Shown one piece after another: positions 1,785-23,264 of a DNA stretch of 64,000 bases (position 1 is the first letter of the stretch; every line of letters starts with the position of its first letter). This stretch comes from an uncultured delta proteobacterium (GTDB taxonomy: Bacteria > Desulfobacterota > Binatia > UBA9968): positions 1-64,000 of the forward strand of contig CAWDPO010000040.1 in NCBI GenBank assembly GCA_963804165.1. The letters are read 5' to 3'. The notes beneath the pieces are model-generated. The model was not told the DNA's origin. It did not search any database and was given only the letters and a program-made list of their open reading frames with translations. The position numbers and the translations under genes are program-made.

Positions 1785-2217
1785 AATCACTGCCACACTT
1801 GTCCTTGTTGGTTTTCTCCAGGCCTGTTCCACAACCGATCCCAAAGCGATCCGAGATCCGATTTCGGTCTACAAAGACGGCATGGAGCAGGGGAATAAGG
1901 CGATGCTCGACGAAGTTCGAACTAAGCTCAAACAGAAGAATGCTTACGGTTCCGTCGAGCCTTACAATCCGTTGAGGCTACCGCCCGACATTCGCAAGGT
2001 CTGGATCGTCGAGCATCCGAATGAAGCGGGCGATCTGATCCAGGGGCACTGGGTTTTCATGGTGGTGGAGCCCGGACGGTGGGTATCACCCACGGTGCCG
2101 GCCATTCATCCGCAGAGCGAGACGAGAACGCCAACCGCTATTCCGGTGATCGAGGACAAACCCGGCCCGAATTCTCCCGGTTCGCAGAACAGACGGAATG
2201 ATTCTCAAGGCGAGTGA
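1777..2217 (+). CDS. traV: TraV-like T4SS lipoprotein
   Basis: Lipobox LQAC; PLRLPPDIRKVWI...GDLIQGHWVFMVVEPGRW is typical of TraV; follows traB. Confidence 0.8.
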   Translation: MIRITATLVLVGFLQACSTTDPKAIRDPISVYKDGMEQGNKAMLDEVRTKLKQKNAYGSVEPYNPLRLPPDIRKVWIVEHPNEAGDLIQGHWVFMVVEPGRWVSPTVPAIHPQSETRTPTAIPVIEDKPGPNSPGSQNRRNDSQGE

Positions 2218-5695: not shown

Positions 5696-6074
5696 TGATC
5701 TTGGTTGGATGCGTTGCTTATGTTGAGCGGCTGCGCTGCCGCCGTGGCGACGGACGGAGAAATTGCATCCACGGAGAATCCCGAAACATCGTTCGCGACC
5801 TGTTCTTATCTCAGAACGCAGGCAAGCTTCCTGCAACGATCTGACGAAAGCATACAACGAAGGGTTCAGGGCCGGCAAGGAAATCATTGCCGCCGAGTTT
5901 CGGACCAGGACGGAATTGAACCAACCCTACGTCTGGAAGCCGCCGATGATAAGCGAAGTCGATATGCCCGCGCGCGTCGTCAACGGGGTGATGATCCCGG
6001 CGCACAGAGAACTTGTGATCGTGAGACCGGGTTATTGGGTGCGGACGGAAAGTCTGTTCCAACCAGTTCCCTGA
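5696..6074 (+). CDS. Second TraV-like lipoprotein (frameshifted)
   Basis: Lipobox LSGC in frame 5705; C-terminus PARVVNGVMIPAHRELVIVRPGYW in frame 5763..6074 resembles the TraV tail. Confidence 0.5.
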
Positions 6075-6365
6075 TCACACAAGCTCAAGTCGCAAGCGGC
6101 GACCAATCGCCGTCGCCGCACGGCTCAAGGTCCCCAAGGTCACACTGTCATTGTCTGGATCGAGCAAGCGGTTAAGCTGGACGCGACTGGTGGCCATGCG
6201 CCGCGCCATTTCGGTGCGGGTAAGCTTTTGTTGCTGCATCGCCTGTTCAATTTGCCATGCCACGACTTTCTTGATCGAGGCGTTGGTGGCTTCCTCGTAA
6301 ATGCCTTCCTCTTTGAGCCAGTCATCGAACCGCCCGCCGATATGACGGTTTTTGCGTTTCTTCAT
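6075..6365 (-). CDS. XRE/HTH antitoxin (HigA-like)
   Basis: NRHIGGRFDDWLKEEG...LTRTEMARRMATSRVQLNRLLDPDN; start overlaps the toxin stop (ATGA). Confidence 0.85.
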   Translation of the reverse strand: MKKRKNRHIGGRFDDWLKEEGIYEEATNASIKKVVAWQIEQAMQQQKLTRTEMARRMATSRVQLNRLLDPDNDSVTLGTLSRAATAIGRRLRLELV

Positions 6366-6505
6366 CGTTTCGCCTCCTTCATTCGTCTCCTTGCCATTTT
6401 CAGATCGCTCGGCGGCGTCTTTTGCGTTTTCTTGATGAAGCCGTGCAGCAAAAGCAATTCGCCAGCGATCACACAAAACAACACGCGGGCTATGCGTCGA
6501 CTGGA
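6362..6505 (-). pseudogene. C-terminal remnant of a RelE/HigB-like (DUF891/Gp49) toxin
   Basis: Translates RIARVLFCVIAGELLLLHGFIKKTQKTPPSDLKMARRRMKE*; N-terminal half absent. Confidence 0.75.
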
Positions 6506-6563
6506 GTGGATTGGGCGGTAAAATCGGCTTGTTGAGTTCTGCCGATTACGGTTAATACCGCAA

Positions 6564-7193
6564 CTATGGACTCGGTCCGTCTGGCCGCCCGGCGGTTCGT
6601 TCGAGTTGAGCTTTCAGGGCGCGATTCTCTTCCAGCAGCGGCGCCATCAGGCGCTCGACTTCCGCCGGGGAAAAACGCGGCGTGATGTGTTGCGGGCAGT
6701 TCCAGTCGAACGCTTCGATGGTGAACACGACGGCACGTTCGACGCGGGCGTGGTAATTCGTATCCTGAAGTTTGGCGATGAGCTCGAGGTCTTCGCTTCG
6801 GTCGACGAGGCGTGCGCGCGCCCAAAGTTTTAGTCGCTGTTGATTTGGGTAGTCCATGATAAACAGCGCGACGCGATTGTCGACGTTCAAGTTGCCGATG
6901 CTGATGTACTGCTTGTTGCCGCGGAAGTCGGCGAAGGCGAGGGTCTTGTCATCCAATGCTTTCAAGAAACCCTTCGGGCCGCCGCGGTGCTGCACATAGG
7001 GCCAACCCGTTTCGCTCACCGTTCCCATGTAGAAACTATCGCACAGCGCGATGAATTCGATTTCCCGTTCGGTCAGACGATCGCCGCGCTCTGGGTCCAT
7101 ATCAAATTTCTGATAAGCCCGCCGGCTGCCGTTACGAGTCTGTGCTGCCTTGACCGAATCGGTGAAAGCGATCTCCGCGAATGCCCGTGCCAT
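6564..7193 (-). CDS. Pyridoxamine 5'-phosphate oxidase-family FMN-binding protein
   Basis: GWPYVQHRGGPKGF, FADFRGNKQY and DWNCPQHITPR motifs. Confidence 0.85.
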   Translation of the reverse strand: MARAFAEIAFTDSVKAAQTRNGSRRAYQKFDMDPERGDRLTEREIEFIALCDSFYMGTVSETGWPYVQHRGGPKGFLKALDDKTLAFADFRGNKQYISIGNLNVDNRVALFIMDYPNQQRLKLWARARLVDRSEDLELIAKLQDTNYHARVERAVVFTIEAFDWNCPQHITPRFSPAEVERLMAPLLEENRALKAQLERTAGRPDGPSP

Positions 7194-7232
7194 AAATTAC
7201 TCCTAAACAAATGTTCTTGAGTTACGTACAGC

Positions 7233-8145
7233 CTACTTGAGATGGCGTGCGAGGAAGTCGCGCATTAGATTAGCGATTTCCTCGCCATGGGTCTCAAGGG
7301 CGAAGTGACCGGTGTCGAATAGATGCACCTTAGCGTTCGGCAGGTCGCGCTGGTAGGGCGCCGCGCCGGCTGACGACGAAGATCGCATCGTTCTTACCCC
7401 AGAGCACGAGCGTCTGCGGCTTGTGCTGGCGGAAGTAGGCCTGCCATTGCGGATACAAAGGAATGTTGGTGCGGTAGTCGTAGAAAAGATCGAGTTGGAT
7501 CTCGGCATTGCCCGGCCGGTCGAGCAGCGCTTGGTCCAAGGTCCAAGTGTCGGGGCTAACTAATGATAGGTCCTTGACGCCGTTGGTGTACTGCCATTTA
7601 GTCGCCTTGATCGAGGTCAACCATCGAATCGCCTCGCGTTCAGTCGACCCACCGGTACGCCAATATGCCTTGATCGGGTCCCAAAACTGTTCGATGCCTT
7701 CGTTGTAGGCGTTGCCGTTTTGGACGATGAGCGCGGTGATCTTTTCCGGATTCTTTGCCGCCAAGCGAAAGCCGATCGGTGCGCCGTAGTCCATCACATA
7801 CAGGGCATAGCGGTTCGCGCCGAGTTGCCCCAAAAGCTTGTCGATCACCTGGGCGTAGTTATCGAAAGTATAGGTGAACTCGGAACGCTCGGGCATGGCG
7901 CTCTGGCCAAAGCCCGGGTAGTCGGGTGCAATGACGCGATATTTGTCGGCCAACTGCGGGATCAGATTGCGAAACATATGCGACGATGTCGGAAAACCAT
8001 GCAGTAGCAGCAACACTGGAGCGTCCAACGGTCCCGCATCGCGGTAGAACACATCGATGCCATCAATGTCGGCCTTGTGGTATTGAATCCGCATGGGCGC
8101 GGTGACCGTGGGCCTTTCATTGTTGATAGAAATTGTCGCGTTCAT
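7233..8145 (-). CDS. Alpha/beta hydrolase, frameshifted near 7370
   Basis: LLHGFPTSS, nucleophile region MDYGAP; catalytic His (TGHFALE) in the shifted frame. Confidence 0.85.
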
Positions 8146-8280
8146 GATATTCTCCCCCTCCGTGGTTTGATCTATGGGTTAGTAAACTGTGCGTCGCCAA
8201 CAACCGCACTATGCTTTATTGCTCGTGATTGCAGAATACCCATTCGGGGCAATTCACTCTTGCGCAGGGCGGAACAATCG

Positions 8281-9180
8281 ATGGACCGATTGCATTTGAT
8301 GACTGTGTTTGTGGCGGTGGCGGAGACCGGGAGCTTCACGGCGGGGTCGCGCCGCTTGGGCATGTCGCCGCCGGCGGTGACCAGGGCGATCGCGGCGCTG
8401 GAAAAGCGGTTGGGCGTAAAACTATTTAACCGCACGACCCGATTTGTCCGAACCACTGAAGCCGGGCAGCGCTACTTGGAAGACTCGCGCCGCATCATAG
8501 GCGAAGTCGACGACGCCGATGAGGCCGTGGTCGGAATCAACGCCGCGCCGCGCGGTCATTTAGCGGTCACTGCGCCGGTGCTGTTCGGCAAGATGTTTGC
8601 GCTACCGACGATCGTGGAATATTTACGCCGCTACCCGGCGATGGAGGTGTCGGCGCTGTTTGTCGACCGGGTGGTCAATTTGTTGGAGGAGGGGTTGGAT
8701 CTCGGCATCCGCATCGGCGAATTGCCGGACTCCAGCATGAAAGCGCTCAGGGTCGGATCGGTGCGCCGGGTGCTTTGCGCGTCGCCGCGCTATCTCAAGC
8801 AGCACGGCACGCCGACAGACCCAGCGGCGCTGGCAAAGCATACGATCATCGCCGCCAGCGGCGTGAGCCCCTCAAGCGAGTGGAAATTTCGCCACGGCAC
8901 GAAGTCGATCACGGTGCGAGTGCAACCGAAACTCACGGTCAACAGCAACGACGCTGCGATCGAAGCCGCGGAAACCGGCTTTGGCATCACGCGGCTGCTG
9001 TCCTATCAGATCGCACCACAGCTGGCGCCGGGACGGCTGAAAATTATTCTGCCCGAATGGGAACCCGCGCCGATGCCGATCCATGTGATCCACCGCGAAG
9101 GACGCTACGCCGCGGTGAAAGTGCGAGCCTTCGTCGATTTGATCGCCGACAAACTGAGGAATGACCGCGCGTTAAGATGA
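8281..9180 (+). CDS. LysR-family transcriptional regulator
   Basis: HTH GSFTAGSRRLGMSPPAVTRAIAALE...LFNRTTR; divergent from the hydrolase. Confidence 0.92.
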   Translation: MDRLHLMTVFVAVAETGSFTAGSRRLGMSPPAVTRAIAALEKRLGVKLFNRTTRFVRTTEAGQRYLEDSRRIIGEVDDADEAVVGINAAPRGHLAVTAPVLFGKMFALPTIVEYLRRYPAMEVSALFVDRVVNLLEEGLDLGIRIGELPDSSMKALRVGSVRRVLCASPRYLKQHGTPTDPAALAKHTIIAASGVSPSSEWKFRHGTKSITVRVQPKLTVNSNDAAIEAAETGFGITRLLSYQIAPQLAPGRLKIILPEWEPAPMPIHVIHREGRYAAVKVRAFVDLIADKLRNDRALR

Positions 9181-9308
9181 CTTCTAGAGGCTGGCCCAAG
9201 CGATTTGCTATCTCACGCGCTTCCAGCCACGGAATTAGCCTTGCACTGACCCAACTTTGACGCCTTTCCCAGCGGCGCACATGCTGCCGCGTGGCGTAAG
9301 ATCTCCGC

Positions 9309-9335
9309 AGACTGCGGCGACGCCGCAGTCTTTTC
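9309..9335 (+). terminator. Perfect GC-rich palindrome followed by T's (probable terminator)
   Basis: AGACTGCGGCG-A-CGCCGCAGTCT then TTTC, downstream of lysR. Confidence 0.45.
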
Positions 9336-9370
9336 CTCGTCCGAGGAATCGTTCTTTGAAAACTCGTCAA

Positions 9371-9391
9371 GCCTTCATATTTGTGGGCTGC
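9371..9391. repeat. 21-bp inverted repeat, left copy
   Basis: GCCTTCATATTTGTGGGCTGC is the reverse complement (20/21) of 10840-10860. Confidence 0.8.
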
Positions 9392-9517
9392 AATTTCTCC
9401 TCTTTTTCTCCCGCCTGAGCGTCACGGGCTGAAAAGCCAGCCGACGCGCACAGGATCATGGGCCCTCTTGAACCCTTGGTGACGAGGGCTGAAGGGGGTC
9501 CATGAAAGGAGAATCAC

Positions 9518-10807
9518 ATGTTCAAACTTGAAGAGATCTGTGAGGAACTTTCACAGATTCAAATCCCTATGAGATCCGAGGAACTCGAATCTATAGGGGT
9601 TCATGTTGAAGAGGAGGCCTCCACCGACGAGGTGGAGCGTTTTCAGGATGGCTACATCAGGGACGTCCACAACTGCCTGGCAGAGCGAAGAAGACACGGC
9701 TGCCGTGCAGCGCTGGTCAGGCCCGCGGCAACCGCGGCGATTCTCGAAGTCGATCCGGTAGAGGCTTATCTCATCTGGCAGTTCACCGATTCTTGGCTGC
9801 CCTATATTGAGGAAGACTATCCGGAAAGACATGAGGGAGACGACCGCAGTCCGCTTTCGCCGACGGAAGGGCTACCAGAGGGTTTTGTCGGCTCAGGCGA
9901 TGCGCTTGAGTACGACCTGCCGAACTGGGACGCCATCGCCGAAGCAAAGGCGCAGATTGCCGGTCGAGTGAAGGAGGAGAGGGAACAATATCATCTTCAC
10001 CTTCAGGATCTCGCTAGAGACTTCGCGCGGTTGGGGCCCGAGATGCTGGAATTCATCCGGCATCACAAGGACTCGCTCCTTGATCTCTTGTGGGAGACCA
10101 GTGATTTCCGGTCACGAAAGACATTACGACCGGAAGTGCCGGCACTCAGGATCGCCGAGTCGCGCGAGAGCATCGAAAAGTATCTCGACGCGCTGGTGAT
10201 TTTTCCGGCAGTCAGAGCGGCTCACGGAGATCCGACGGAAGCGAGACAGCGTGTTCGAGAAGCGCTGAGGCTCTTCTGCAACGGAGGCAAAGCGCCCGAG
10301 GGAAAAACTGGAACCGGAAAACATGTGAGTGGTTTCGGTCTCGACCCAAAGGTGTTGATCAAAGCTTCCAGGCTGGAAGAGAGATTTCAGAAAGCCTTGA
10401 TCGCTTATCGTCTTCGTCTGGAGATCTGGGAGGAAGCGCAGAAGTCGCTGAGCCCAAGAGCAAGGCAGCTTCTTCGTCCGAACAATGGGGCGAGCTTCGT
10501 TCAGAAGGTGATCGCCGGGGTCATCCATTCTTTCCCAAAGAAATGGAAGGAAGAGAGGATCAACGGTTCGGTCATCTATCATCCGGCCAATTGGGATGAG
10601 AGCGAGGCTCAAGGCGCTGTTGAGATCAAGACGAAGCCGCTGATCGGATGGGGTTACCTCATCGGCGGATTTAACACACCCGCCGAGGCCTCATCTTTCC
10701 TGGCCAATCCTGAGACCCGGGAGCAGCTGAGCCTTCTTGGTCCGAACTGGATCGAGGAGGTCAAGAGGATCGTCTTTGGCGCCTACAAGCGAGCGCGCAA
10801 AGATTGA
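9518..10807 (+). CDS. Hypothetical protein, 429 aa, acidic N-terminus
   Basis: Strong RBS (AAGGAGA), long ORF, no recognised domain. Confidence 0.8.
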   Translation: MFKLEEICEELSQIQIPMRSEELESIGVHVEEEASTDEVERFQDGYIRDVHNCLAERRRHGCRAALVRPAATAAILEVDPVEAYLIWQFTDSWLPYIEEDYPERHEGDDRSPLSPTEGLPEGFVGSGDALEYDLPNWDAIAEAKAQIAGRVKEEREQYHLHLQDLARDFARLGPEMLEFIRHHKDSLLDLLWETSDFRSRKTLRPEVPALRIAESRESIEKYLDALVIFPAVRAAHGDPTEARQRVREALRLFCNGGKAPEGKTGTGKHVSGFGLDPKVLIKASRLEERFQKALIAYRLRLEIWEEAQKSLSPRARQLLRPNNGASFVQKVIAGVIHSFPKKWKEERINGSVIYHPANWDESEAQGAVEIKTKPLIGWGYLIGGFNTPAEASSFLANPETREQLSLLGPNWIEEVKRIVFGAYKRARKD

Positions 10808-10839
10808 ATCCTGTTGGGCAGCGGCACACTGGATCCCCC

Positions 10840-10860
10840 GCAGCCCACAAATATGCAGGC
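10840..10860. repeat. 21-bp inverted repeat, right copy
   Basis: GCAGCCCACAAATATGCAGGC pairs with 9371-9391. Confidence 0.8.
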
Positions 10861-10912
10861 AACGCTAATTCCCGAAAAAGTCAAAGGTTTTACCATCGAT
10901 TGAAGGCAGTTA

Positions 10913-10941
10913 TTGACTACTAAAATTACTTTTAGTAGCCT
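10913..10941 (+). promoter_or_regulatory. Sigma70-like promoter with overlapping palindromic operator, upstream of lexA
   Basis: TTGACT-N17-TAGCCT with CTACTAAAA-TTAC-TTTTAGTAG (10917-10938) spanning the spacer; ATG 6 nt after the -10. Confidence 0.7.
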
Positions 10942-10947
10942 TAGCCC

Positions 10948-11560
10948 ATGCTGATTCCGCTCACCGATAAGCAGAAAAAGATCTACAACTTTCTTTCCGT
11001 TAGCGTTCGCGAGCAGGGTTACGCCCCATCGATCCCGGAGATCGGCAACCGATTCAAAATAACTTCTACCCGCGGCGTCTTCGATCATTTAAAGGCACTG
11101 GAAAAGAAGGGCTACATCAAGCGGGTCGGTAGACGTGCCATCGAAATTACCAGTCCATCAGGTCGGTCAGCACTCCCCGAAGCGAAAGAAATTCCAATCG
11201 TTGGGCGTGTCAGGGCAGGTGCTCCGATTTTGGCTGAAGAGAACATCGAAGGTTTTCTGACCTGTGGCCAGCGACCTTGCTCGCGGCGAGGAATCGTTTG
11301 CCCTCAAGGTCAAAGGCGACAGCATGATTGAGGACGGCATTCTCGAAGGAGATCTGGTAATCATCAGGCGGCAAGAAACAGCGGTAAACGGCGATATCGT
11401 GTGCGCGTTGATCGGCAACGAAGCGACATTGAAAAGGTTTCAGCGGAAAGGGAATCAAATTACTTTGAAACCGGCAAACCCAAAATATGAACCGATCATC
11501 GTTTCGAAGGGTGAATTTCGCATCCTCGGAAAAGCTACTGGAGTGATAAGAAAGCTCTAG
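10948..11560 (+). CDS. lexA: LexA repressor, +1 frameshift near 11263
   Basis: wHTH (GYAPSIPEIG...HLKALEKKGYI), cleavage site VRAGAP, catalytic GDSM and ATLKR in the second frame. Confidence 0.9.
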
Positions 11561-11684
11561 GATGCTGCCGACAACGATCCAGATGCTTCGTTACTTTTCA
11601 TCGGCTCGCTTCAACGTACCGACTAGGTACGAGTCAGCTCGTCAATCTTTCGCGGCCTTGCATCTAAACGTTTTTCAACAGCCT
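11559..11684. repeat. 126-bp MITE/REP-like palindromic element, copy 2
   Basis: Shares TTCGTT...CTCGCT.CAACGTAC...GTACG...GCTCG...GCATCT...TTTTT with 5535-5660. Confidence 0.65.
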
Positions 11685-11724
11685 GCAAGGAGAGTTCTTC
11701 AGCGCAATGCTATGGAGATGCCTA

Positions 11725-14412
11725 ATGAACACAGCAAAGACATTGACAAAGCCATCGATTAGAGGAATCCCGTTCGAAATCCTTCGGGCCTACGGCATCG
11801 GGGATGAGATCATAAACATCTGGAAGGACTCCTATGGCGATTGTCTTCTGCCGATCCAAGAAAAGGCAATCGTTAAATACAATGTGCTCGGAGGAAAGAA
11901 TCTTATCATCTTTGCACCGACATCTTCTGGAAAGACATTGGTCGGCGAGATCGTTTCGGTTCACTATGCCATGGCCAAAAAGCGAGCGCTTTATCTCGTT
12001 CCGATGAAAGCATTGGCCGAGGAAAAGTATCATCACTTCCAAGAAATGTATGGCGAACTTGGCGTCGAGACCATCATTTCAACCCACGACCGTAAGGAAT
12101 ACGACCAGGATCTTGAGCGAAAAGAATTCGACATTGCCGTGGTCATATTTGAAAAGCTCAATGCTCTCCTCGTCAGTAACCCAAACCTGCTCCAGGGAAT
12201 TGGCTTGATCGTGATCGATGAGCTCCAGATGATGGGTGATGAAACGCGCGGAGCGGGGTTGGAGCTGTTGCTCACCAAAATACTTCTATCGCCTTACAAG
12301 CCACAGCTTCTTGGTCTTTCTGCTGTATTAGGCGACGGTGAAGATCTCGCGCGCTGGCTCAGGGCAGAGCTTCTGGTCGAGACCGGCAGGCCTGTGGAAC
12401 TGAGAAAGGGAGTTTTATCCAGAGGTGTTTTTAGCTACCTGGAGCATAACAGTGGCGCGGAAGGTGAGGAGAAATGGCCTCTGCCTGAGCCCGAGGAAGA
12501 AGGTCTCGCCGCCCTTCACGCGGCGAAATATTTCGCCGAAGCCAAGGACGAACAGAGCATTATTTTTCTCCCTGATAAACCGACAATGGAAACCTTGGGC
12601 GAAAAGCTCAAGGACATGGTTGATTTACCCCCGGCTACCGGTGCCATAGGAGAACTCAAATGCTTTGAGGAATCTTACTCCCGGGATCTGCTGCTGTCTT
12701 TTCTCTCCCACGGAATTGCCATCCATAACGCCGACTTGAGCTGGGAAGAACGAGACCTGGTCGAGAGATATTACCGTAAGGGAGAGATACGGATACTCCT
12801 TTCCACCTCCACACTCGCGATGGGAATCAACCTGCCGGCACGAAATGTCTTTATCCCGGAGAAAAAATGGAACACGCCGAGAACCGGCAACCAGCTCGCG
12901 ATGACGGACATCTCCAAGGCCGAGCATGAAAACATGGGCGGTCGGGCAGGAAGGCTAGGCTTTGTCGATGAATTTGGCAGAGCCATTCTCGTTACCTCGT
13001 CCCCGTTTCACAAGAAAACTTTCTACGATTACTACGTCAAAGGCGGCTTCGAGAAACTCAAGCCCGCCCTTAATGACCAAGATATCGATCTTTATTGTCT
13101 TGATCTCATTGCCTCCGGCATCTGTTCACATGAAGAAACGCTAAAGAACTTTCTTTTGTCCACCTACACGGGCGTTTCAAGCTGGAACGGAGTTGCCGGC
13201 AGAGATTTTAGAGAGGCCCTCGCCGAGCGCGTGCAAAAGATCATCGAGAAATGCCTGAATTGGGGACTCTTGAAGAGAGACGTCCAGGAAAGACTCCAGG
13301 TCACTGAGAGAGGAAAAGTAACGGCGCAGATGGGAATCTCCATCGACACCTGTCTTAACCTGATTAAATGGATGGATCTCTGCGATCCAGCGAGAGTTTC
13401 GGAACTAGAGGTACTGGTCGCCGCAGCGCTTACCGACGACGCCAAGGCCATCCATGTGCCGCTGCCGAAGGGAGAATTTCGGCGGTCCAAATACCGAAGC
13501 CTTTTCGCCCAAGAGGTCCAAAATCTTGGCGAGTCCGACAAGACACTGTTCAAGAGCATCCTCGGCCCTTCACACCGGCTTCAGTACGAGCAAGAGAGGG
13601 CGCTAAAAAAGGCGCTGGTCCTGTATCACTGGATTTCGTCAGCGCCGACCAAAGAGATCGAGGAAGCACATCATCTGTTCTTCGGCGCCATAAAAAAGAT
13701 GGGAGAGGAGTTTAGCTGGCTGGTCGAAGCGATCTCCACGTTGGCCAAGGCTGAAGGATGGCCGGAGCAGGTCATCAATAAAATGAATCTTCTCGGTCAG
13801 CGACTCAGCTTCGGCGTCGCCCCAGTAGCATTGGAAATTGCCAAGCTGAGGATTCCGGGACTCGGTCGTGGCTATATCTCCAGGTTAGTGAAAAACGGTT
13901 ACGACAGTTCGAAAGCCTTGGCGCAGGTTACGCAAGAAGATTTGGAGCATTTTCTTCCCGAAGATATTGCAAAAAAGATAGTGAAGAAGTTCACGCGCGT
14001 ACCACCTGGGACTCGGGAAAATCCTGGACCCAGGAAAAATCAGATCGACTCAGAATCCGTGCCGCTCCAAAGAAAGATAAGCGATGCCATCCTGGTCGTC
14101 GACGGCAGACATCCCGGGACCATCGAGTTTCGCGGTGAGAACGTGAGGCTTACCTCAAAGCAATTCTCGCTTCTCGCTGCCCTGGCTGAATCGCCGGGCA
14201 AATGCGTTTCTTACGACGCCATATACAAAAAACTGTGGGGTGACGACGTCGCGGTAGAGATGCAGCAGATCAGTTATCACAAGGCCCAACTGCTTAAGAA
14301 GATTCATCGCGTCGCGCCGAAGTCAGATGTGAAGGCTTTAATCACGCCGGTTTCGGGTGAAGGCATTGTCCTCAATCTCCGGCCAGATGAGATTAGCCGC
14401 GGGCGGGCGTAA
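11725..14412 (+). CDS. Ski2/Hel308-like SF2 helicase with C-terminal OmpR/PhoB-type winged helix
   Basis: APTSSGKT, PMKALAEEK, DELQ, LSA, STLAMGINLPA, MGGRAGR; HhH IPGLGRG; tail VRLTSKQFSLLAALAESPGKCVSYDAIYKKLWG...ITPVSGEG. Confidence 0.85.
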   Translation: MNTAKTLTKPSIRGIPFEILRAYGIGDEIINIWKDSYGDCLLPIQEKAIVKYNVLGGKNLIIFAPTSSGKTLVGEIVSVHYAMAKKRALYLVPMKALAEEKYHHFQEMYGELGVETIISTHDRKEYDQDLERKEFDIAVVIFEKLNALLVSNPNLLQGIGLIVIDELQMMGDETRGAGLELLLTKILLSPYKPQLLGLSAVLGDGEDLARWLRAELLVETGRPVELRKGVLSRGVFSYLEHNSGAEGEEKWPLPEPEEEGLAALHAAKYFAEAKDEQSIIFLPDKPTMETLGEKLKDMVDLPPATGAIGELKCFEESYSRDLLLSFLSHGIAIHNADLSWEERDLVERYYRKGEIRILLSTSTLAMGINLPARNVFIPEKKWNTPRTGNQLAMTDISKAEHENMGGRAGRLGFVDEFGRAILVTSSPFHKKTFYDYYVKGGFEKLKPALNDQDIDLYCLDLIASGICSHEETLKNFLLSTYTGVSSWNGVAGRDFREALAERVQKIIEKCLNWGLLKRDVQERLQVTERGKVTAQMGISIDTCLNLIKWMDLCDPARVSELEVLVAAALTDDAKAIHVPLPKGEFRRSKYRSLFAQEVQNLGESDKTLFKSILGPSHRLQYEQERALKKALVLYHWISSAPTKEIEEAHHLFFGAIKKMGEEFSWLVEAISTLAKAEGWPEQVINKMNLLGQRLSFGVAPVALEIAKLRIPGLGRGYISRLVKNGYDSSKALAQVTQEDLEHFLPEDIAKKIVKKFTRVPPGTRENPGPRKNQIDSESVPLQRKISDAILVVDGRHPGTIEFRGENVRLTSKQFSLLAALAESPGKCVSYDAIYKKLWGDDVAVEMQQISYHKAQLLKKIHRVAPKSDVKALITPVSGEGIVLNLRPDEISRGRA

Positions 14413-14575
14413 GGCGTATCGAATTCAGATTTTTCTGGATTGCTTCTGAGATCCGAATCGTTGCAAGTTACTTTCGTCTGAATCTGCTTTCGGTGCGTCA
14501 GCGCGCCTAATCCAGTCAGAAAAATTCCCAGGAAAACACCATCCTGTCTAAGATACTTCTGAGATCCTAAATCCC

Positions 14576-14607
14576 TAAAATCGCCCCCAGAACTAGGGGC
14601 GATTTTA
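14576..14607. promoter_or_regulatory. 12-bp perfect inverted repeat upstream of the 14630 ORF
   Basis: TAAAATCGCCCC-CAGAACTA-GGGGCGATTTTA. Confidence 0.5.
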
Positions 14608-14629
14608 TGCAGAAAAGGGGGATTCAGGA

Positions 14630-14920
14630 ATGATCGATATCAATTACAGTCTTGAAACATTGACAGGGAAACACGGAAGTCTTTTGGAGGTCGTCGAGGC
14701 GATAGTCTCCGATGGCAGGCTCATCGTGATTTTGACGGACGAAGACGTGCTGCAAAGGCGCGATGCCCCATTGAAGGCTATCTTCTATCGTGTGGTCTTG
14801 CCGCTCGCGCAGGCGACGGTGAACATTAAAGGAGAAGCATTCGGGCTCGTCCAGGAGAGTCTCAAATTTTCGGAGGATGGCAGAGGCTTGGAAAACCTGG
14901 TGCGCGAGGTAGGGAGGTAA
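14630..14920 (+). CDS. Hypothetical protein, 96 aa
   Basis: Purine-rich RBS; first of three closely coupled ORFs. Confidence 0.65.
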   Translation: MIDINYSLETLTGKHGSLLEVVEAIVSDGRLIVILTDEDVLQRRDAPLKAIFYRVVLPLAQATVNIKGEAFGLVQESLKFSEDGRGLENLVREVGR

Positions 14921-14924
14921 ACTC

Positions 14925-15425
14925 ATGTCATCCAAAACAAAATTGCTAGATGAGCAGGGGCTAATCGATCTGGCTCGACAAGCGATCGAGGATCTTCGAA
15001 ATGACGGAGTTTCTCCGACAGAACTGAAGCGCCTGGAGACCGTTCTCAGGGAAGGAAATATTGGAGAGGCGTTTATTGTCGCTAGCGTCCTACGAACCGT
15101 CCTTAATGAGATTGCACCGGACGCATCGCACAAGAAACTTTTGCGGCTCTATCGCCGATTGGAGGAATGCTGCCACGTGCTTGTTGAGATTAGTCGAAAC
15201 CTGGTTGATGTCGAAGCGTGGCAACATTATCGCGCATCCGGTTACGAGAGCTTTGAGTCGTACTGTGAGAAAGAGTTAGGAGTAGCCCCGTCAAGGATCG
15301 AAGGCCTAAAGCTTATCAAAGACCGGCGCTTGCCGCGCCCGGGAAAGGGCGGCGCAGCGGATCTCTTTTGTTGGTTTTTTGATGTGATCCAAGATCTGAG
15401 CAGAGGAATTTCAAGACCGTCATGA
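14925..15425 (+). CDS. Hypothetical helical protein, possible DNA-binding
   Basis: RBS GGAGG; GYESFESYCEKELG motif seen in small HTH proteins of mobile elements. Confidence 0.65.
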   Translation: MSSKTKLLDEQGLIDLARQAIEDLRNDGVSPTELKRLETVLREGNIGEAFIVASVLRTVLNEIAPDASHKKLLRLYRRLEECCHVLVEISRNLVDVEAWQHYRASGYESFESYCEKELGVAPSRIEGLKLIKDRRLPRPGKGGAADLFCWFFDVIQDLSRGISRPS

Positions 15426-15928
15426 ATAAGCCTAGGTGCTGCAATAATATTCATGTGGATCCCAATGCGGCCATGAGCGTGGGCCTTTCGCAATACCACT
15501 TTTCAACACCAGAAATTCGGCTCCTGATGAGGCATGTTCTAGGCCATGCAATCTCAGGCCGAACTATAAAGCGCATGGTCAAATCAGCGGGACGCCGATT
15601 AAAACGGGGCCGTCCGCCGACGACACCAAGAGTTCACAAAAAATGCGTTAACGGCCTTATAGCGGTATGCAGCGAAGGCCTGGGTTTATTTGACGGCAAC
15701 GCGCTACATTTTTTGAACCATATCGAAGTCCAATTCGGTCTTAGCCCGCGTCAGTACCTGAAATGGGTAATCCGATACATGCGCCGCGGAAGGTGCATGA
15801 TGCGGAAATGTCTGCTGTGTGGCGACTTGTTCCCTTCCTTGCATTCCGGGGAAAGACATTGCCGGGCATGTCAGGGCGGCAGGCGACGTCTTGTGAACGA
15901 AGAGCGTCAATCTTCTTTTGAGTTATAA
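15422..15928 (+). CDS. Zn-ribbon protein, possibly an FlhC/SetC/AcaC-like activator
   Basis: ATGA overlap with the upstream ORF; HTH-like segment, RGRPP, C-terminal CLLC-x13-CRAC. Confidence 0.55.
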   Translation: MNKPRCCNNIHVDPNAAMSVGLSQYHFSTPEIRLLMRHVLGHAISGRTIKRMVKSAGRRLKRGRPPTTPRVHKKCVNGLIAVCSEGLGLFDGNALHFLNHIEVQFGLSPRQYLKWVIRYMRRGRCMMRKCLLCGDLFPSLHSGERHCRACQGGRRRLVNEERQSSFEL

Positions 15929-16052
15929 TGATTTCCGCTTGTTATTTCGGATTTATCTAAATTGTGCCACCGATGCACTGATTTTTCCCGTTTGATCGAC
16001 TAAATCGCCTAACCCTAGTGTGCATAATGGGTTCCACAGAGGTGTAACGACG

Positions 16053-16283
16053 ATGCACACGATTCTGAGACTTCCGGATGTGAAGCGAAGCACAGGGCTT
16101 TCGCGTAGCACAATTTATTTGCGCATTACGCAAGGCACTTTCCCTAAGCCAGTGAGCCTGGGCGGGCGCGCCGTGGGCTGGTTGGAAGCTGAAGTCCAAC
16201 AATGGTTACAGCGACGAATTGAGGCGAGTCGCAGTGAAAGCATCGGTGCGGGGGCAACTTTGGGGGCACCACGCAATGTCTAA
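16053..16283 (+). CDS. alpA: AlpA-family regulator / probable excisionase
   Basis: ILRLPDVKRSTGLSRSTIY...FPKPVSLGGRAVGWLEAEV. Confidence 0.92.
   Translation: MHTILRLPDVKRSTGLSRSTIYLRITQGTFPKPVSLGGRAVGWLEAEVQQWLQRRIEASRSESIGAGATLGAPRNV
16252..16268 (+). repeat. 17-bp direct repeat (integrase arm-site-like), copy 1
   Basis: GGGCAACTTTGGGGGCA is identical to 57298-57314. Confidence 0.65.
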
Positions 16284-16591
16284 ACTGAAAACTATTAGAA
16301 CTCACCAGTGCTTACAGCAATAATGTGGTTGCTCGATGAACATTCGTGTTTAAATGGACTCGTCGAAAGCCTATAGGCGAATTTGATTCGCCGGAATAAA
16401 TGAATTTTGCTAAAAGTTAGCTGCTCTACAAACGCGCGTTGCACCGCACGGTGGTCGGCGGCATTGTATGACGTGAACCGGGTTTGAAGGCCAACGGCAC
16501 ACGCGGGTCAGAGTTTCTCAGAAACCGCATGTTGACAGAGCCGTCGCAGAGATAAAGGCGAACCTGCGCCGCACCACAAAGGATCGCTCAA

Positions 16592-17379
16592 ATGCCGAAA
16601 TCATCGATACAAAAGTTGTTTACAGTTGTACTCGTACTCAATTTCGTGATTTCAGCTGGGTGTGCCCAACTTTCGCGTGAGCGAGACCCGCAAGCGGAAA
16701 TCGGCTTCATAGACATCAATTCCGACATGAAGCTCAGAAGAATGATTGTTCACAACGCGCGAGACCGAAAGGCGTTGTGCTCTTCCTGCATGGCTTTCCT
16801 GAGACTCTGTATGCCTGGAAGCACATCTCCGTGATTCTCGCCAGAGACCACGAAGTACATGCTTTTGATTGGCCGGGCTACGGTCTTTCCTCGAGACCGC
16901 CTGCTGATCAATTTTCTTATGCGCCCAAAGACTATGCGCACGTTCTGAAGGAATACATCACGAAATCAGGCATTGATACTTCAAAGCTCGTGATCTATGC
17001 CACGGATATCGGCGCCTTGCCCGCCCTTATTGTTGCTTTAGACGAACCCAACTTCGCGAAAAAAATGATTGTCGGTGATTTCGCCCCGTTTGATAGACCT
17101 CAGTACATGCATGCCACTTTACAAAGCCTGAAATCCAAGCCTTCTTCTGACCGCACTCGCGACCACATGAACAACACTCGCGATGAAATTCTGGAGAATG
17201 CCTTCCGAAGAGGGTTGTCCAGGGATGAGCAGTTTGAACTTTCTCAGGAATTCCGAGATGACATGTTTAGAGGATGGAGCCAAGACAACATGACATCCGC
17301 GGACGCCTTCTATCATTACTATTCACACTTCACCAGGGACCAGAACTATTTTGAGCCACAAGCAGCACGTCCTGGCTGA
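16592..17379 (+). pseudogene. Exported alpha/beta hydrolase, frameshifted and 3'-truncated
   Basis: Lipobox SAGC in the first frame; FLHGFPET and DWPGYG in the second; catalytic His region missing. Confidence 0.7.
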
Positions 17380-17577
17380 TCGCCGTTAAGTTCTTCAGGT
17401 CGATCACGAAGTTTTGAAGGTCCGCTCTGGCCTTTTCGCGAGCAACTCTTAGCTCGGTGACCAGCGAGCGAGGCGCTTACCCTCCAAAATCAACCAGCGC
17501 TCACTGCGGCTCTCGACAGCGGAGGTCTTCACACGCGGCTTGGTTCCTGATGGACATGTCTCGTATCTGCTAAACCG

Positions 17578-18024: not shown

Positions 18025-18580
18025 TGCTTACCCTCCGCTCGCGATATGGCTAGAAAGGCAGGTTGTACAGTTAAGAACAATGTTCTGTCAAACTCATCAG
18101 AGGAAGAGGTCTGAATTGCGCATAAAGCTCCGGATTTATGCCAAGCTCTTTCATCAGATAGGAGGTGCGTTCGATTACGCCAGGCGCGCTGGCCCAGTCA
18201 GCGCCAACCACACGGCCATGCTTTCCAAGATCTCCTTGCGTTGCTTTTTCGCATGTCCGCGATCACAAATTTCTAGTTTCAACAGTTCGCGCCGATCAAG
18301 ACCTGTTCGAATTGATTCCCGTAGGTAGCGGCTTTCTTACGCTTGCAAAAAACCAACCGATCTTGTCGCAATATTGGGAAAATAAATTATTTCAATGATC
18401 AGGAATTCTGCTACAAGTTCTTCTTGTCTTCGCGTTTTTCTCTGTCTCCGCTGCTGCTTACTAAGAGATAACCTTACCAACGGCGATGTACCTTTTTAGT
18501 CATATTCTGGTATACGGGTTGCTGACGCGAAGACATGTAGGCTAAAGTCTGTACCCTGATTGCCAGTGGAAAGATACGAA

Positions 18581-20801
18581 ATGAGTTCCGAGGATCTTGA
18601 CCTCGCCACCAAGCGTGAGCAGGACCAGAGTTTAGAGGAGTTGAGGCTAAGCGAGTTCTATCTCGCCGAATCCCAGCGGCTTGCGCACATGGGGAGTTGG
18701 TCTTTCACGGCCGATGGAAAACGCGAATACTGGTCCGCCGAGCATTTTAACATTCTCGGTTGTGACCCAGCTCGTGGCGTACCCCCGATTCCGGAGTTTC
18801 TGAACAACATTGTGCATCCTGACGATCGCGAGCGCATCAAAGGCGAGATCGAGAGAATGGTCGCGAAAGGTGAAGGATGTGACGAAAAGTTTCGGATCCT
18901 ACACCCGCAACGCGGGGTTCGATTCGTGCGCAGCGTGGGCATTCCCGTGTTCGAGGACGGGGTAGTCACACGTTTCGCCGGCACGATCATGGATATCACC
19001 GAAGAGGAAACGCTCACGCAGGAACTCAAGCGGAGCGAGGCTTATTTGGCTGAAGCGCAGAGTTTGAGCCAGACGGGCAGTTTCGGCTGGGTTGTGTCCA
19101 CTGGGGAAATTTTCTGGTCTGAGGAAACGTTTCGGATTTTTGAATACGACCCTGCGACCAAACCGACAGTAGAACTTGTACTGCAGCGGACACATCCCGA
19201 GGACAAAGATTTTGTCCGGTGGGTGATCGATCGTGCAGCCCAGGGAGGGAAACGATTTTGATATCGAACATCGATTACTGATGCCGGACAAACGCATCAA
19301 ATACCTGCATGTCATCGCCCACCGGCGTAGCGACAATTCCGAAAATCTCGAATTCATAGGCGCGGTCAGAGACGTCACGGCGGCGAAGACTGCGCAACGC
19401 AAACTCAAAGAGGACGAAGCAGAGCTCCGGCAGTTGATCAATTTTGTTCCCGAGCACGTTTTCGTTATGGATGCTGATGGCAATCGCCTGTACGAGAATC
19501 AGGCGATGCGGGAATATTTCGGGACAAGCTTGGACGGACATTCCGGCGAAGGACTTCTATCGGAAGTTTGTTCATCCCGATGATGTGGCGAGTGGCGCAT
19601 TAGACGAACGCGAGCGTGCCGTCGCGCGTGGCGCTCCATGGGAAGGAGAGCTGCGGTTACGGCGCAAAGATGGTGAGTACCGGTGGTTTTTGATCCGTTC
19701 CAACCCGCTGCGAGACGAACACGGAAAGGTCATCCGACGCTACGCAACGGCGACCGATATTGATGATCGAAAGCGGGCGGAAGAGCGGGTTCAAAAAGAA
19801 AACGTCGCATTGCGCGAAGAAATCGACAAAGCCTCGATGTTCGAGGAAATCGTCGGCTCTTCCGCCGCCCTGAAAGAGGTGCTTTCTCGCGTATCTCAGG
19901 TCGCGCCGACAGATGCCACGGTGCTGCTCACGGGTGAAACCGGGACGGGAAAGGAACTCATCGCTCGTGCGATCCACAAACGGTCACAGCGCTCCGCGAA
20001 AGCTTTTGTCACTGTGAACTGCGCAGCGATACCCCAGACCCTAATCGGCTCGGAATTATTCGGCCATGAGAAAGGAGCATTTACCGGTGCCCTGCAGCGG
20101 CGTATGGGCCGATTTGAACTCGCCGAAGGAGGGACGATTTTCCTCGATGAAATCGGCGAACTTCCGGCGGAAATGCAAAGCGCTCTTTTGCGCGTTCTCC
20201 AGGAGCAGGAATTCGAGCGTGTCGGCGGAACTCAAACGATCCGCGCCGATGTTCGGGTGATTGCAGCTACTAATCGCGACCTGAAGGCTGCCATGACTGA
20301 ACGGGACGTTTCGGAGCGATCTCTACTATCGGCTTCAGGTGTTTCCGATAGAGATTCCGCCGCTGCGCGAGCGCAAAGAAGATATTCCCCTGCTGGTCGA
20401 GTACTTCATCGATCGTTATGCCAGCAAGATGGGCAAAAAAATCCGAAGCATCAATCAGAAGTCGTTGGAGTTGCTTCGGTCTTACTCTGGCCGGGCAATA
20501 TTCGCGAATTGCAGAAATGTGTGGAACGGGCGGTCATTGTTTCTGAAGGCGACGTTCTGTCGATTGACGAGAGCTGGTTGTCTGCAGAGTCCGCGCACAG
20601 CTGAACCGGCAACGGAAGCGGTTTCCAAGCTACCGCCGGGATCGGGAGAAAGAGATCATCGAAGCCGCCCTGGCTGAAACTCAAGGGCGAGTATCGGGAC
20701 CTTCCGGTGCGGCAAGAAAACTCGGCATTCCGTCCACGACTCTGGAATCAAGAATCCGATCATTGAAGATCAACAAGCATCGCTTCAAAGCCCTCGACTA
20801 A
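18581..20801 (+). CDS. Multi-PAS sigma54 enhancer-binding protein (several frameshifts)
   Basis: Three PAS/PAC repeats, [29 protein letters not shown], Fis-type [19 protein letters not shown] ending TAA at 20801. Confidence 0.88.
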
Positions 20802-21649: not shown

Positions 21650-22975
21650 TCACACGAGTTCCGGACCCGCAATGGTCATGGGCAGGAAATCCCAGTATGT
21701 GACGAAGTCGTTCATCCACGTGACAAGGCTCGTATTGCCGTCCTGGGATATCACGGTAGCAAGCATATCCGGAATCTCTTTGCAGAGGTGATAGGCCGCA
21801 AGATGGCGGGTGCCAACACCTTCAGCCCGCTCATATACCCTCTGTTCTCCTTCCGCGTCTATGGCGCGTGCAATGATCTCTTCTTTGCTAAAGGTGCCCT
21901 TTATTACTGCTCCAAAGCCGACGAGATCAAGCCCCCTGGTTAAAATGACCGCTCCGTCAACTGTCGCCAAATTGGCGATCAAACGCGCGCACTCGAAGAG
22001 GGCCTCATCAAGTTCCAGAAGCGTATTTTTACTGGCGGCAACGTACTCGCTCCATCCGACAACTTTCCCGGGGTCTTTGGATGACCCGTAGTGCTTTGCG
22101 AGTTCGTTCATTATGCCGACTGTCAGCCAGCGCAACCGTCGCACAGGCTCTTCGTCTTTGAATATATACTTTATGAAGACATACGGATTGGGAGACGTTA
22201 TCCTCTGAATTAGGCTGGGCGGGAACAAAATGATGATCCCTCCATGCTTCATGTTTCTGATGCTGCTAATTATCCGCTTGATGACCTGCTCATAAAGTCT
22301 CGCAACAAAACTCTCACTTATAGTCGCCCAGGCTATGTCCGCGTCAGGCCGGCTTCTGATATGCATCTCCATAATTTCCTTATGGACGCTTTCCACCCGC
22401 CTTGTTAACCATCGTGAATGCAAAACATTCGTAGAAGGCATTGTTATGCGGCCCGCGCTCAATTGCGCGAGTATGTTTGACCCACGGTAAGCCCTTATGC
22501 TGCCCGGTCCAGTAATATCCAGGACAAGAGAATCAGGCATGGGCATAATTATTTTGCTGCCGCCCTGGAACGCCTGTATCCAGCGGGTTCCCGAGTTAAT
22601 CAATCCCCATATCTGCAGACCTTTCGCAGGATCGTGACAGACACCGATGAGCGAGCTTTCGAATTCAGAGGCGGGGCTCAATTTCAGCAATTCGTATTCA
22701 TGGAAAGCACGTGGCTCCCTGAAAACAATTCTGAGAAATCCGTAAGGAGGGCCGAGTTCAGGAGGAAACTCTGAGAGATCACAAAGGGCTATCCTGAAAC
22801 GCAGAGAGCTCAGTTCCTCACTCATCATGCTCACCTGATAGCAGGTCGATATGAGATACTCGAGAACCTCACCATCAGGCAGCTTGTTGTATCTCTTAGA
22901 GGGTTCGCTCTCCGAAAAATTGTCCCAGAGTCTCAGAATCTCTTCAGATAAGTGATGTGGATACGCGTGTTTCAT
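21650..22975 (-). CDS. DisA_N-type diadenylate cyclase with N-terminal sensor domain (DACNV-like)
   Basis: VDGAVIL, GFGA, GVGTRHLAA and ISQDG motifs at the C-terminus. Confidence 0.75.
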   Translation of the reverse strand: MKHAYPHHLSEEILRLWDNFSESEPSKRYNKLPDGEVLEYLISTCYQVSMMSEELSSLRFRIALCDLSEFPPELGPPYGFLRIVFREPRAFHEYELLKLSPASEFESSLIGVCHDPAKGLQIWGLINSGTRWIQAFQGGSKIIMPMPDSLVLDITGPGSIRAYRGSNILAQLSAGRITMPSTNVLHSRWLTRRVESVHKEIMEMHIRSRPDADIAWATISESFVARLYEQVIKRIISSIRNMKHGGIIILFPPSLIQRITSPNPYVFIKYIFKDEEPVRRLRWLTVGIMNELAKHYGSSKDPGKVVGWSEYVAASKNTLLELDEALFECARLIANLATVDGAVILTRGLDLVGFGAVIKGTFSKEEIIARAIDAEGEQRVYERAEGVGTRHLAAYHLCKEIPDMLATVISQDGNTSLVTWMNDFVTYWDFLPMTIAGPELV

Positions 22976-23264
22976 GAAAATGACGCAATCGACCACCCGT
23001 CACTGCGGTTAATGGCTCTTCGCCGCCGAAACGGCTAACGACATCGTTTCTGTTCAGCTTGAGTCCACTCCATTGGAGGTCTGCCGGCAGCACAACGACC
23101 GAGCGGTCGTTTGCTTTATAGTTAGAACCAGGTACCTCCATGATGTCTGCCATTCGACTATGTCTTCTGGAGAGTCGTAAGGCAAGTCTTTCGAATCACG
23201 CCCCGATTTACGCGAAGCAACTGTTACAGTTCCGTTTCATTCTCCCGCCTCCCGCCAAAGCAAA

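Follow-up and report, generated by a model that had tools for sequence, protein, structure and literature searches.

Repressors gated by RecA are well known on mobile elements, and in the SXT/R391 integrative and conjugative elements (ICEs) and the IncC plasmids a two-subunit activator is encoded near one end. To our knowledge, the ICEs whose regulation has been worked out in detail belong to no more than a handful of families, found in Proteobacteria and Firmicutes. The locus described here lies at positions 10,913–16,283 of a window of 64,000 nucleotides, which is the whole stretch of DNA that was analysed and comprises bases 1–64000, the first 64 kb, of a 230-kb contig (CAWDPO010000040.1, termed C40) in the 7.5-Mb, 46-contig genome of an uncultured delta proteobacterium (GCA_963804165.1). 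It consists of six genes, lexA, a helicase gene, o96, o166, o168 and alpA, close to an F-like transfer (tra) block. What it would share with the SetR-SetCD switch of SXT/R391 and with AcaCD of IncC (see PMC4344509 and PMC4542580 on these systems) is a repressor of the S24 family, here predicted to be sensitive to activated RecA (RecA*), on a conjugative element with F-like tra genes. Unlike SetR, the repressor is a true LexA with a LexA_DNA_bind domain and is not CI-like, and the first gene under its control would be that of a Hel308-type helicase with a winged helix-turn-helix (wHTH) domain. Unlike SetCD and AcaCD, o166 and o168 have no homology to FlhD or FlhC, and control of tra or int genes is hypothetical.

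In our reading, an F-like conjugative element of soil bacteria has integrated here and the region is the conserved module at its end, with two transcription units that form an SOS switch; we hold this reading tentatively, with doubt slightly outweighing belief. Our confidence is much greater for one part of it: the first unit, lexA and the helicase gene, is likely to be damage-controlled. That the module as a whole gates activation of the element is a somewhat doubtful proposal, and a link of the lexA-helicase unit to excision or transfer is something that we only infer. The first-pass annotation of this DNA had described six co-oriented genes; all six are on the + strand, between 10948 and 16283, with Pfam families for lexA, the helicase and alpA.

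The lexA paralogue (10948–11560, + strand) matches PF01726 (3.8e-19) and PF00717 (4.1e-29), that is, both an N-terminal LexA_DNA_bind wHTH and a C-terminal S24 peptidase domain. An Ala-Gly cleavage site (VRAGAP), the GDSM serine and the TLKRF lysine are present in the window and in all four relatives compared; we take the residues required for cleavage to be those of E. coli LexA. By its DNA-binding domain the product is a true LexA, and it carries every sequence hallmark of a repressor that is cleavable and autoregulated. The promoter and operator (10913–10947, + strand) comprise a TTGACT −35 element (10913–10918), the palindrome TACTAAAATTACTTTTAGTA (10918–10937) and a −10-like TAGCCT (10936–10941), such that the palindrome fills the spacer between TTGACT and the TA...T of the −10 element, and the ATG at 10948 follows within ∼12 nt. 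The lexA transcript is thus likely to be leaderless. The arrangement TTGAC-TACTAAAA-N4-TTTTAGTA is near-invariant ahead of lexA in 17 of 17 aligned relatives, whose flanking sequences diverge. The palindrome ahead of lexA is thus real, but the gene is split into two frames (10948–11331 and 11264–11560) by an extra T at ∼11263, a 1-nt insertion. The frame is intact in all four aligned relatives (L130, L115, L107 and L124). Since nearby genes are also frame-split (16592–16834/16777–17379 and 18560–20604), a 98–99% identical contig from another sample has two letters fewer at 16756, and genome completeness is 80.9% with only 46 contigs, the lexA frameshift is possibly an assembly error. The more distal of these split genes encodes a PAS-PAS-sigma54 activator spread over three frames (18560–19261, 19233–19583 and 19444–20604), which appears to be further evidence for either indel errors or real decay in this stretch.

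The host has its own lexA, on contig C34, ∼60% identical to the element gene. Its promoter has the same layout but carries the box TACTGAAAATAATTTCAGTA, that is, TACTGAAA-N4-TTTCAGTA, and the two boxes differ symmetrically, with CTG...CAG in the host and CTA...TAG in the element. The recognition helices differ as well, reading STRGVFDH in the window and the four aligned relatives versus STNGVSDH in the host LexA, and the N/R position is presumably base-contacting, as in E. coli LexA. Because operator and recognition helix both differ from those of the host, unit 1 probably listens to RecA* yet is insulated from the host LexA regulon. Across the 7.5 Mb of the genome the element operator has only one perfect match, and each relative's locus likewise contains it once. 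A strict palindrome scan for the host SOS regulon returned only the two lexA promoters with AT-rich spacers, and the host box is thus known from one site. In a promoter and terminator consensus scan the lexA and o96 promoters were not called, and terminator-like sites were no commoner than in shuffled sequences. The pairing of operator and helix (CTG with N versus CTA with R) offers a directly testable case of a change in LexA specificity.

Acquired LexA copies are known from other settings. In Pseudomonas putida, LexA2 is said to be a second LexA copy on mobile or accessory DNA. The accessible portion of a study of Leptospira interrogans describes LexA2 as the product of an acquired lexA in a prophage-like region, with its own palindrome, that binds only its own promoter (PMC3789691). 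The paralogue described here differs from the Leptospira protein in that it shares an operon with a helicase gene, belongs to a conjugative element and is met repeatedly, both in many contigs and in prophages.

The helicase gene (11707–14412, + strand) lies immediately 3′ of lexA in 16 of the 17 loci with 700 bp or more of sequence ahead of the helicase gene; the seventeenth (L153) carries a 2-kb insertion. The two genes abut or overlap in many relatives (L111, L112, L120, L121, L123 and L140), and the helicase is therefore taken to be the gene controlled by the element LexA. It encodes a 901-residue Hel308/Ski2-like protein (PF00270, PF00271, PF21280, PF00486) with a core at about residues 31–781 and an OmpR/PhoB-type wHTH at residues 810–886. 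The DNA-binding tail noticed at first inspection is confirmed by a PF00486 (Trans_reg_C) match of 9.6e-11 and 42.1 bits against a cut-off of 26.2; no Response_reg receiver domain is matched in the protein, the N terminus of which is helicase. Trans_reg_C domains are normally the sequence-specific domains of transcription factors. The Hel308 domain order is complete, with two RecA domains, a winged helix (WH), the ratchet (domain 4) and a helix-hairpin-helix (HhH), and NCBIfam profiles extend over about residues 31–769. Matches to solved structures run end to end (Hjm 2zj2, 2.7e-68 over residues 45–781; Hel308 2p6r over residues 31–760), and K76, T77, D171, E172, R413 and R416, which belong to Walker A, DELQ and the arginine fingers, are invariant. 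The NCBIfam equivalog cut-offs for Hel308 are missed (307.5 versus 887 bits and 220.5 versus 1200), and by these profiles the protein is a Hel308 relative and not an equivalog. It shares with archaeal Hel308/Hjm the full domain order and the 3′–5′ superfamily 2 (SF2) motifs. Bacterial Lhr, in the accessible portions of two reports, is damage-inducible and has winged-helix modules (PMC5758891, PMC8053096). The helicase described here is set apart from both Hel308 and Lhr by its unique C-terminal OmpR/PhoB-type wHTH and by DELQ as motif II, and Lhr models score only 28–74 bits. As a separate observation, one metagenome contig (L170:54–686) has alpA and its ∼50-bp tail joined to the linker- and wHTH-coding end of the helicase gene (residues ∼794–895) without the helicase core; this join may be a rearrangement, an insertion into the helicase gene or a chimeric assembly.

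To place the module in a wider setting, a scan of metagenome contigs returned 70 loci, of which 68 are at least 55% identical to the helicase, and synteny was counted over these. The core order lexA, helicase-wHTH, o96, o166, o168 is kept in dozens of soil metagenome contigs. The gap between the helicase gene and o96 is at most 400 bp in 40 of 50 loci and wider after insertions in 4, and o96 is followed by o166 and o168 in 29 of 29. Module open reading frames (ORFs) other than lexA are intact and 54–96% identical to those of relatives. Among proteins, many helicase-wHTH sequences are 72–93% identical, with a long tail at 35–48% in other phyla. Genomes of the same genus (30) and the same family (6) yielded no helicase orthologue (tallies that include G005 and G035, genomes flagged as unpublished); it appears as contig-end fragments in two genomes from another family of the same order, and of 400 genomes sampled from the phylum five have a helicase relative, none above 40% identity. 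With no same-genus orthologue and few distant relatives in the phylum, the module is therefore accessory in its host and horizontally spread. Neither the 5 genomes carrying distant helicase loci nor 401 genomes from the phylum of G461 yielded o96. A search of sequencing runs placed only small shares of the stretch (≤0.19) in metagenome contigs, from soil, sediment and groundwater, and listed no RNA run that contained it; in four runs compared with the window, relatives' contigs were found, none spanning the module, and no excision joint was seen. In four relatives (L113, at 12682–17487 and 18257–19849; L134; L136; L137), insertions of 1–4.8 kb, probably insertion sequences, split the helicase gene from o96 and o166 from o168.

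The module is linked to a conjugative element, as had been proposed, by a neighbourhood search of its relatives. The genes TraV-o290-TraC-o156-orf429-lexA-helicase are contiguous in L130, and L123 runs from TraC to lexA-helicase-o96-o166-o168. Of the 10 loci with 1.5 kb or more of sequence ahead of lexA, 8 have orf429 there, and of the 5 that extend far enough beyond orf429, 3 have TraC before it (the window, L123 and L130). Chromosomal integration is indicated by housekeeping genes on the same 230-kb contig and by relatives on contigs of 162 kb (L113) and 542 kb (L123).

The helicase family and its association with LexA extend well beyond this element. Among 80 distant helicase loci from species genomes, lexA is immediately upstream in 6, and the canonical, strongly palindromic LexA box ACTG-N10-CAGT is at the helicase promoter in 11, compared with 0 sites in 1.16 Mb of flanking sequence. 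These 11 loci are mostly from Hydrogenedentota and all retain the wHTH tail. In 6 of the 80 (L004, L005, L010, L011, L012 and L050, from Myxococcota-type metagenome-assembled genomes (MAGs)), a divergent regulator of the HTH-WYL-WCX type (HTH_11) stands beside the helicase gene in place of lexA, a type known from the PafBC and DriD damage responses; with such a neighbour, members of this helicase family may be under damage control that does not involve LexA. Frequent neighbours of the distant helicases are large serine recombinases and an AAA_24 protein. In a viral collection, the lexA-helicase pair is found in both contigs with a helicase at least 40% identical. One of them, L177, has a serine integrase (opposite strand), lexA, helicase, an ORF, exonuclease, a Sak4-like protein, a RusA-like resolvase, an SF2 helicase and primase in this order. 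L177 is a predicted prophage, and this is the early region of a temperate phage in which LexA takes the place of the repressor. In the CI-type SOS switches of temperate phages, repressor cleavage opens an early replication operon, and L177 has the same layout with lexA. In phage GIL01, which uses host LexA together with a phage LexA homologue, gp6, release of LexA opens the early operon, according to the accessible portions of the sources (PMC6182141, PMC4551915). What distinguishes the present repressor from these switches is that the element itself encodes it, as a complete LexA that is apparently cleavable. The helicase-linked lexA genes of L001, L008, L013, L044 and L057 each have their own palindrome between a TTGAC-type −35 and a −10, and all of these palindromes differ (CTGTAAATCTTTACAG, ACTAAACGATTGTTTGGT, ACTCAACAATCGTTGAGT, GAACATTTGTTC, GGCTAACTAATGTTAGCC), a pattern reminiscent of the diversification of phage immunity regions. 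On this comparative evidence the helicase family appears to be damage-linked well beyond the element.

The second transcription unit is preceded by a control region (14413–14629, + strand), a 217-bp spacer after the helicase gene. Its first half is variable and its last ∼115 bp are strongly conserved in 38 sequences, the order being TCAGAAAAA, a −35-like TTCCCA (14525–14530), an 18-nt spacer, TAAGATAC(A/T)TCTGA and the leader, with a −10-like TAAGAT at 14549–14554. This promoter block stays ∼82 nt before o96 even where insertions part o96 from the helicase gene. TCTGA/TCAGA is present in five copies in the 217 bp compared with a window mean of 0.43, the sole such peak in 64 kb, and the o96 promoter can be described as weak-looking, conserved and flanked by these repeats. 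RNAalifold pairs CUGAAUCCCU (14567–14576) with the ribosome-binding stretch GGGGGAUUCAG (14618–14627). Over 20 loci, 91.5% of the cells of this 10-pair helix can pair, and in 4 pairs both sides have changed in a compensatory way. The covariation score was reached by 0 of 500 shuffles and the compensatory-pair count by 32, and slid registers score far lower. The helix may sequester the ribosome-binding site and so act as a translational gate; support for this is moderate, as the structure comes from the very sequences used to assess it, which are related to one another. Between 14412 and 14630 a simple scan found no terminator on the + strand, and Rfam gave no match at E≤1 in 9300–16700. A conserved ATCCTG-like stretch in the o96 leader was considered as an origin of transfer (oriT), by presumed likeness to the IncP nick site, and rejected since the G varies, being A in the window, L126, L163 and L152.

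The operon itself starts with o96 (14630–14920, + strand), an orphan with 48 of 96 columns invariant and a mean column identity of 88%. Next is o166 (14925–15425, + strand), an all-helical orphan with an AlphaFold 2 (AF2) pLDDT of 73.6, and then o168 (15422–15928, + strand), which is predicted to have helices at its N terminus and a CxxC-x13-CxxC zinc ribbon at its C terminus, where C130, C133, C147 and C150 are invariant. None of the three has a family in Pfam (E≤10), NCBIfam, PADLOC or PHROGs. For o96, an identification as NinB/DUF1367 (atlas lead 0.91, low recognition) was dropped when hhalign against lambda NinB gave a probability of 0.2%. With the o166 model Foldseek returned nothing significant, and VIA-align found only generic helical bundles (Z≤7.7), FlhD not being among the matches listed. 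The pLDDT of o168 is 51 alone, too poor for a fold search, and 68–79 in a complex model. A profile search with o168 found only 58 representatives among 1.84 billion, many of them fragments, and 8 of 10 relatives scanned have no Pfam family at E≤0.1; of the two weakest matches, one (P0176) has eukaryote-type C2H2 fingers and the other (P0175) families far below cut-offs.

An FlhDC/SetCD-like pair had been suggested for o166 and o168. As homology this fails, given that FlhC, FlhD and DUF2857 have no Pfam match at E≤10 and that hhalign gives 1.2% with E. coli FlhC (zinc ribbon only) and 0.07% with FlhD; o166 and FlhC gave no alignment. The underlying idea of a two-subunit regulator fares better. 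The o166–o168 complex model reached an ipSAE of 0.79 (runs 0.79, 0.80 and 0.45) compared with 0.00 for the best control, with partner pLDDT of at least 68 and contact agreement of at least 69%. Among 80 solved complexes 58 attain this ipSAE mark, as do 2 of 110 mismatched pairs, counts that hold only roughly because our own alignments were used for the complex model. The two proteins are thus predicted to bind each other, and in our reading they would most likely form a heteromeric DNA-binding regulator. The likeness to SetCD, AcaCD and BisDC is one of function: the pair would be a small heteromer, one subunit of which has a zinc ribbon, and its genes stand at the end of a conjugative element. 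In ICEclc, as reported in the accessible portion of the source, the BisR-P_alpA-BisDC cascade has an end-located operon that joins alpA to a heteromeric activator, one subunit of which is weakly FlhC-like (bioRxiv 10.1101/2020.05.27.119875). According to the same portion BisC has DUF2857 and BisD a ParB domain, neither of which is found in o166 or o168 by Pfam, and ICEclc is not described there as SOS-gated; alpA comes after the pair here, not before it, and in only 5 of 29 loci.

The alpA gene (16020–16283, + strand; likely start ATG 16054) matches PF05930 (5.1e-22, 77.9 bits), as the first description had it, but is not a constant part of the module. The 29 loci are those with at least 150 bp downstream of o168, and the five with alpA are the window, L112, L147, L149 and L150, a distribution that marks alpA as a lineage-specific addition. 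A conserved tail (16284–16352), delimited by blastn and alignment, follows it, and likeness to L147 and L149 ends at ∼16352, ∼70 bp past alpA. Synteny with the congener G006 resumes at 17359. The sequence 3′ of o168 is unrelated between lineages, and in L113 o168 is followed by one ORF, tRNA-Arg(CCG) and ispE, which together argue that the o96–o168 operon lies at the outer edge of the element, reading outward. The arm-site-like repeat thought to end the module was not recovered: the search for repeats over 15900–16480 turned up nothing beyond a 16-nt direct repeat in two copies (81% identity) and three inverted pairs, all of them short. No similarity that could represent an att core was found between the tRNA-Arg region of L113 and window 15901–17400. 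Just outside the element, a lipoprotein alpha/beta hydrolase gene (16462–17355) is 98% identical to a copy in G003, another species of the genus, with different flanks, and may be a small mobile cassette; it is the gene split over the frames 16592–16834 and 16777–17379.

The sequence itself shows two units, an operator private to the first, conserved control regions in both and a location at the element end. Beyond this, we propose that the element LexA would bind TACTAAAA-N4-TTTTAGTA in its own promoter and repress itself and the co-transcribed helicase gene. DNA damage would generate RecA*, self-cleavage of the element LexA would follow, and lexA-helicase transcription would rise. Unit 2, o96-o166-o168 with alpA in this lineage, might then be opened by read-through, by the helicase acting through its wHTH or through nucleic-acid remodelling, or by a signal on its promoter or leader, the helix of which could hide the ribosome-binding site. 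The o166/o168 complex, with AlpA where present, would finally switch on excision, replication or transfer functions. The most far-reaching version of this scheme, which we regard as rather unlikely, is that a new F-like ICE family of soil bacteria and related prophages use fully cleavable LexA paralogues as master repressors with private operators, which would confer specificities like those of phage immunity (CTA-N10-TAG here, other palindromes in L001, L008, L013, L044 and L057), the helicase being released first and licensing an RNA-gated operon for a heterodimeric activator of excision and transfer. In that case the switch would belong to a class of SOS-gated ICE switch not described before, and the helicase would be a new and widespread member of the SOS regulon.

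Several results weigh against an SOS switch of this design. Neither the window nor the relatives' loci contain a second element LexA box, and since the o96 promoter has no such box, LexA control of unit 2 depends entirely on read-through or a putative helicase step. The helicase gene occurs without o96 in 6 of 50 loci. Chromosomal homologues under the control of a LexA box retain the wHTH tail and have no o96, o166 or o168, and because the family is LexA-box- or lexA-linked in other phyla and prophages lacking these ORFs, the tail is not dedicated to promoters of the element. The earlier notion of a helicase-transcription-factor tier is weakened accordingly. Clusters of TCTGA/TCAGA are not enriched beside distant helicase genes (0.5–0.6 per 350 bp compared with a background of 0.44), and for this reason binding of the wHTH to the repeats was rejected. 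Neither o166 nor o168 has a recognizable DNA-binding family, and a helix-turn-helix reading of o168 comes from secondary structure and atlas leads below 0.9, which are weak. No integrase, att sites or element ends were seen in the sequence available.

The main rival explanation, which we consider quite possible though somewhat doubtful, is that lexA and the helicase form a phage-derived, damage-inducible replication, recombination or repair cassette that processes DNA and has no part in regulation. Its roles would be fork rescue, unwinding during replication of the element or the handling of incoming single strands, the wHTH would load the helicase, and o96-o166-o168 would be independent. This fits the prophage layout as well as the favoured reading does, for the same pair heads a replication and recombination operon in predicted prophage L177, and it accommodates the second SF2 helicase between orf429 and lexA in at least six relatives of the element, the complete Hel308 architecture with intact ATPase motifs, the LexA-box homologues without the small ORFs and the separate, LexA-box-free promoter of unit 2. 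The Hel308-related Lhr is moreover a damage-inducible repair helicase in the accessible portions of two studies (PMC5758891, PMC9841417). A cassette of this kind is harder to reconcile with the persistent adjacency of helicase and o96 in 40 of 50 loci, with a location at the element end beside alpA or a tRNA gene that would be typical of control regions, and with the usual place of Trans_reg_C in transcription factors.

It is less probable that the module is idle here as part of a decaying remnant in which lexA is truly inactivated and the tra set incomplete. The lexA frameshift, a cargo insertion between o156 and orf429 and the absence of the SF2 helicase of other relatives could all be decay. 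Only TraK to TraC are present, and TraE, TraU, a coupling protein (TraG-D_C PF12696, T4SS-DNA_transf PF02534) and a MobH relaxase (TraI_2, PF07514) have no match anywhere in the bin; the copy in this genome may be inactive or the bin incomplete, which also tells against a working switch. The contig starts in traK, however, and at this completeness the remainder may be unassembled or unbinned; the split genes nearby are unrelated to the module and, with the 2-nt indel, point to assembly indels, and the remaining module ORFs are intact and similar to those of relatives. Very improbable, finally, is a motor of an anti-phage defence system carried as cargo, Hachiman-like HamB or similar. PADLOC HamB models (7.3e-36 and below) and a solved HamB (4.7e-20) do match, but over the helicase core only, spanning 170–390 residues of models of 850–1160, whereas archaeal Hel308/Hjm match far better and end to end. 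There is no HamA/DUF1837 partner, orf429, o96, o166 and o168 have no PADLOC match, and control by LexA or a LexA box is recurrent.

If the reading of the region as an SOS-gated end module is true, it would represent a different way to ‘leave when the host is damaged', based on an element-borne copy of LexA with a retuned operator and no cross-talk with the host, in which a repair-type helicase heads the damage-induced genes. The Hel308-wHTH family merits attention for its control by LexA, a LexA box or a WYL regulator in several phyla and prophages. In the literature covered, which is open-access with subscription journals largely outside it, no ICE LexA paralogue with a retuned operator is described, nor an operonic Hel308-wHTH helicase or any LexA, LexA-box or WYL linkage of the helicase family, nor an orphan o96/o166/o168 operon with a leader that hides the ribosome-binding site.

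The F-type tra block reported upstream of the module is real but partial. The first base of the contig falls inside traK, and since none of the further components sought had a match in the bin, only part of an F-like system is visible, with TraK, TraB, TraV and TraC as the mating-pair-formation genes present. All are on the + strand: traK, its 5′ end cut by the contig start (1–597; PF06586, PF23536, and a TIGR02756 match below cut-off), a traB/trbI-like gene (663–1784; PF03743, 8.4e-25), a traV-like lipoprotein gene (1777–2217; PF09676, 9.3e-08), o290, a conserved ORF without a family between traV and traC (2198–3070; 89% identical copy in L130), and traC, encoding an F-type ATPase of the VirB4 type (3054–5417; PF11130 full length, P-loop). 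TraC_F_IV, used as a positive control, matches only the window in the whole genome. The conserved ORF o156 (5705–6175, + strand) has homologues after traC in L123, L130 and L129, and orf429 (9518–10807, + strand), upstream of lexA, has no Pfam, NCBIfam, PADLOC or PHROGs family. Between them lies a cargo insertion (6504–9212) with PNPOx-like, alpha/beta hydrolase and LysR genes identified by Pfam and absent from relatives; position 6504 is joined straight to 9212 in one relative's contig, and o156 adjoins orf429 in L130, where the block is absent.

The SF2 helicase between orf429 and lexA in other relatives (for example L107:633–2843 and L123:3804–5957) has 717–737 residues with ResIII and Helicase_C domains and is missing from the window, L130, L110, L115 and L124. 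Its core gives PADLOC matches to type IV restriction and PbeA models, and its relatives also turn up close to the helicase of Hel308 type, both in loci from Planctomycetota and in prophage L177. Downstream of the module, a gene at 21650–22996 (− strand) encodes a 448-residue protein that has a DACNV sensor domain, weakly matches DisA-type diadenylate cyclases and may be a c-di-AMP-related signalling protein, and ordinary chromosomal genes follow the module, including those for an Mla transporter, glycogen phosphorylase, phosphoketolase and transketolase.

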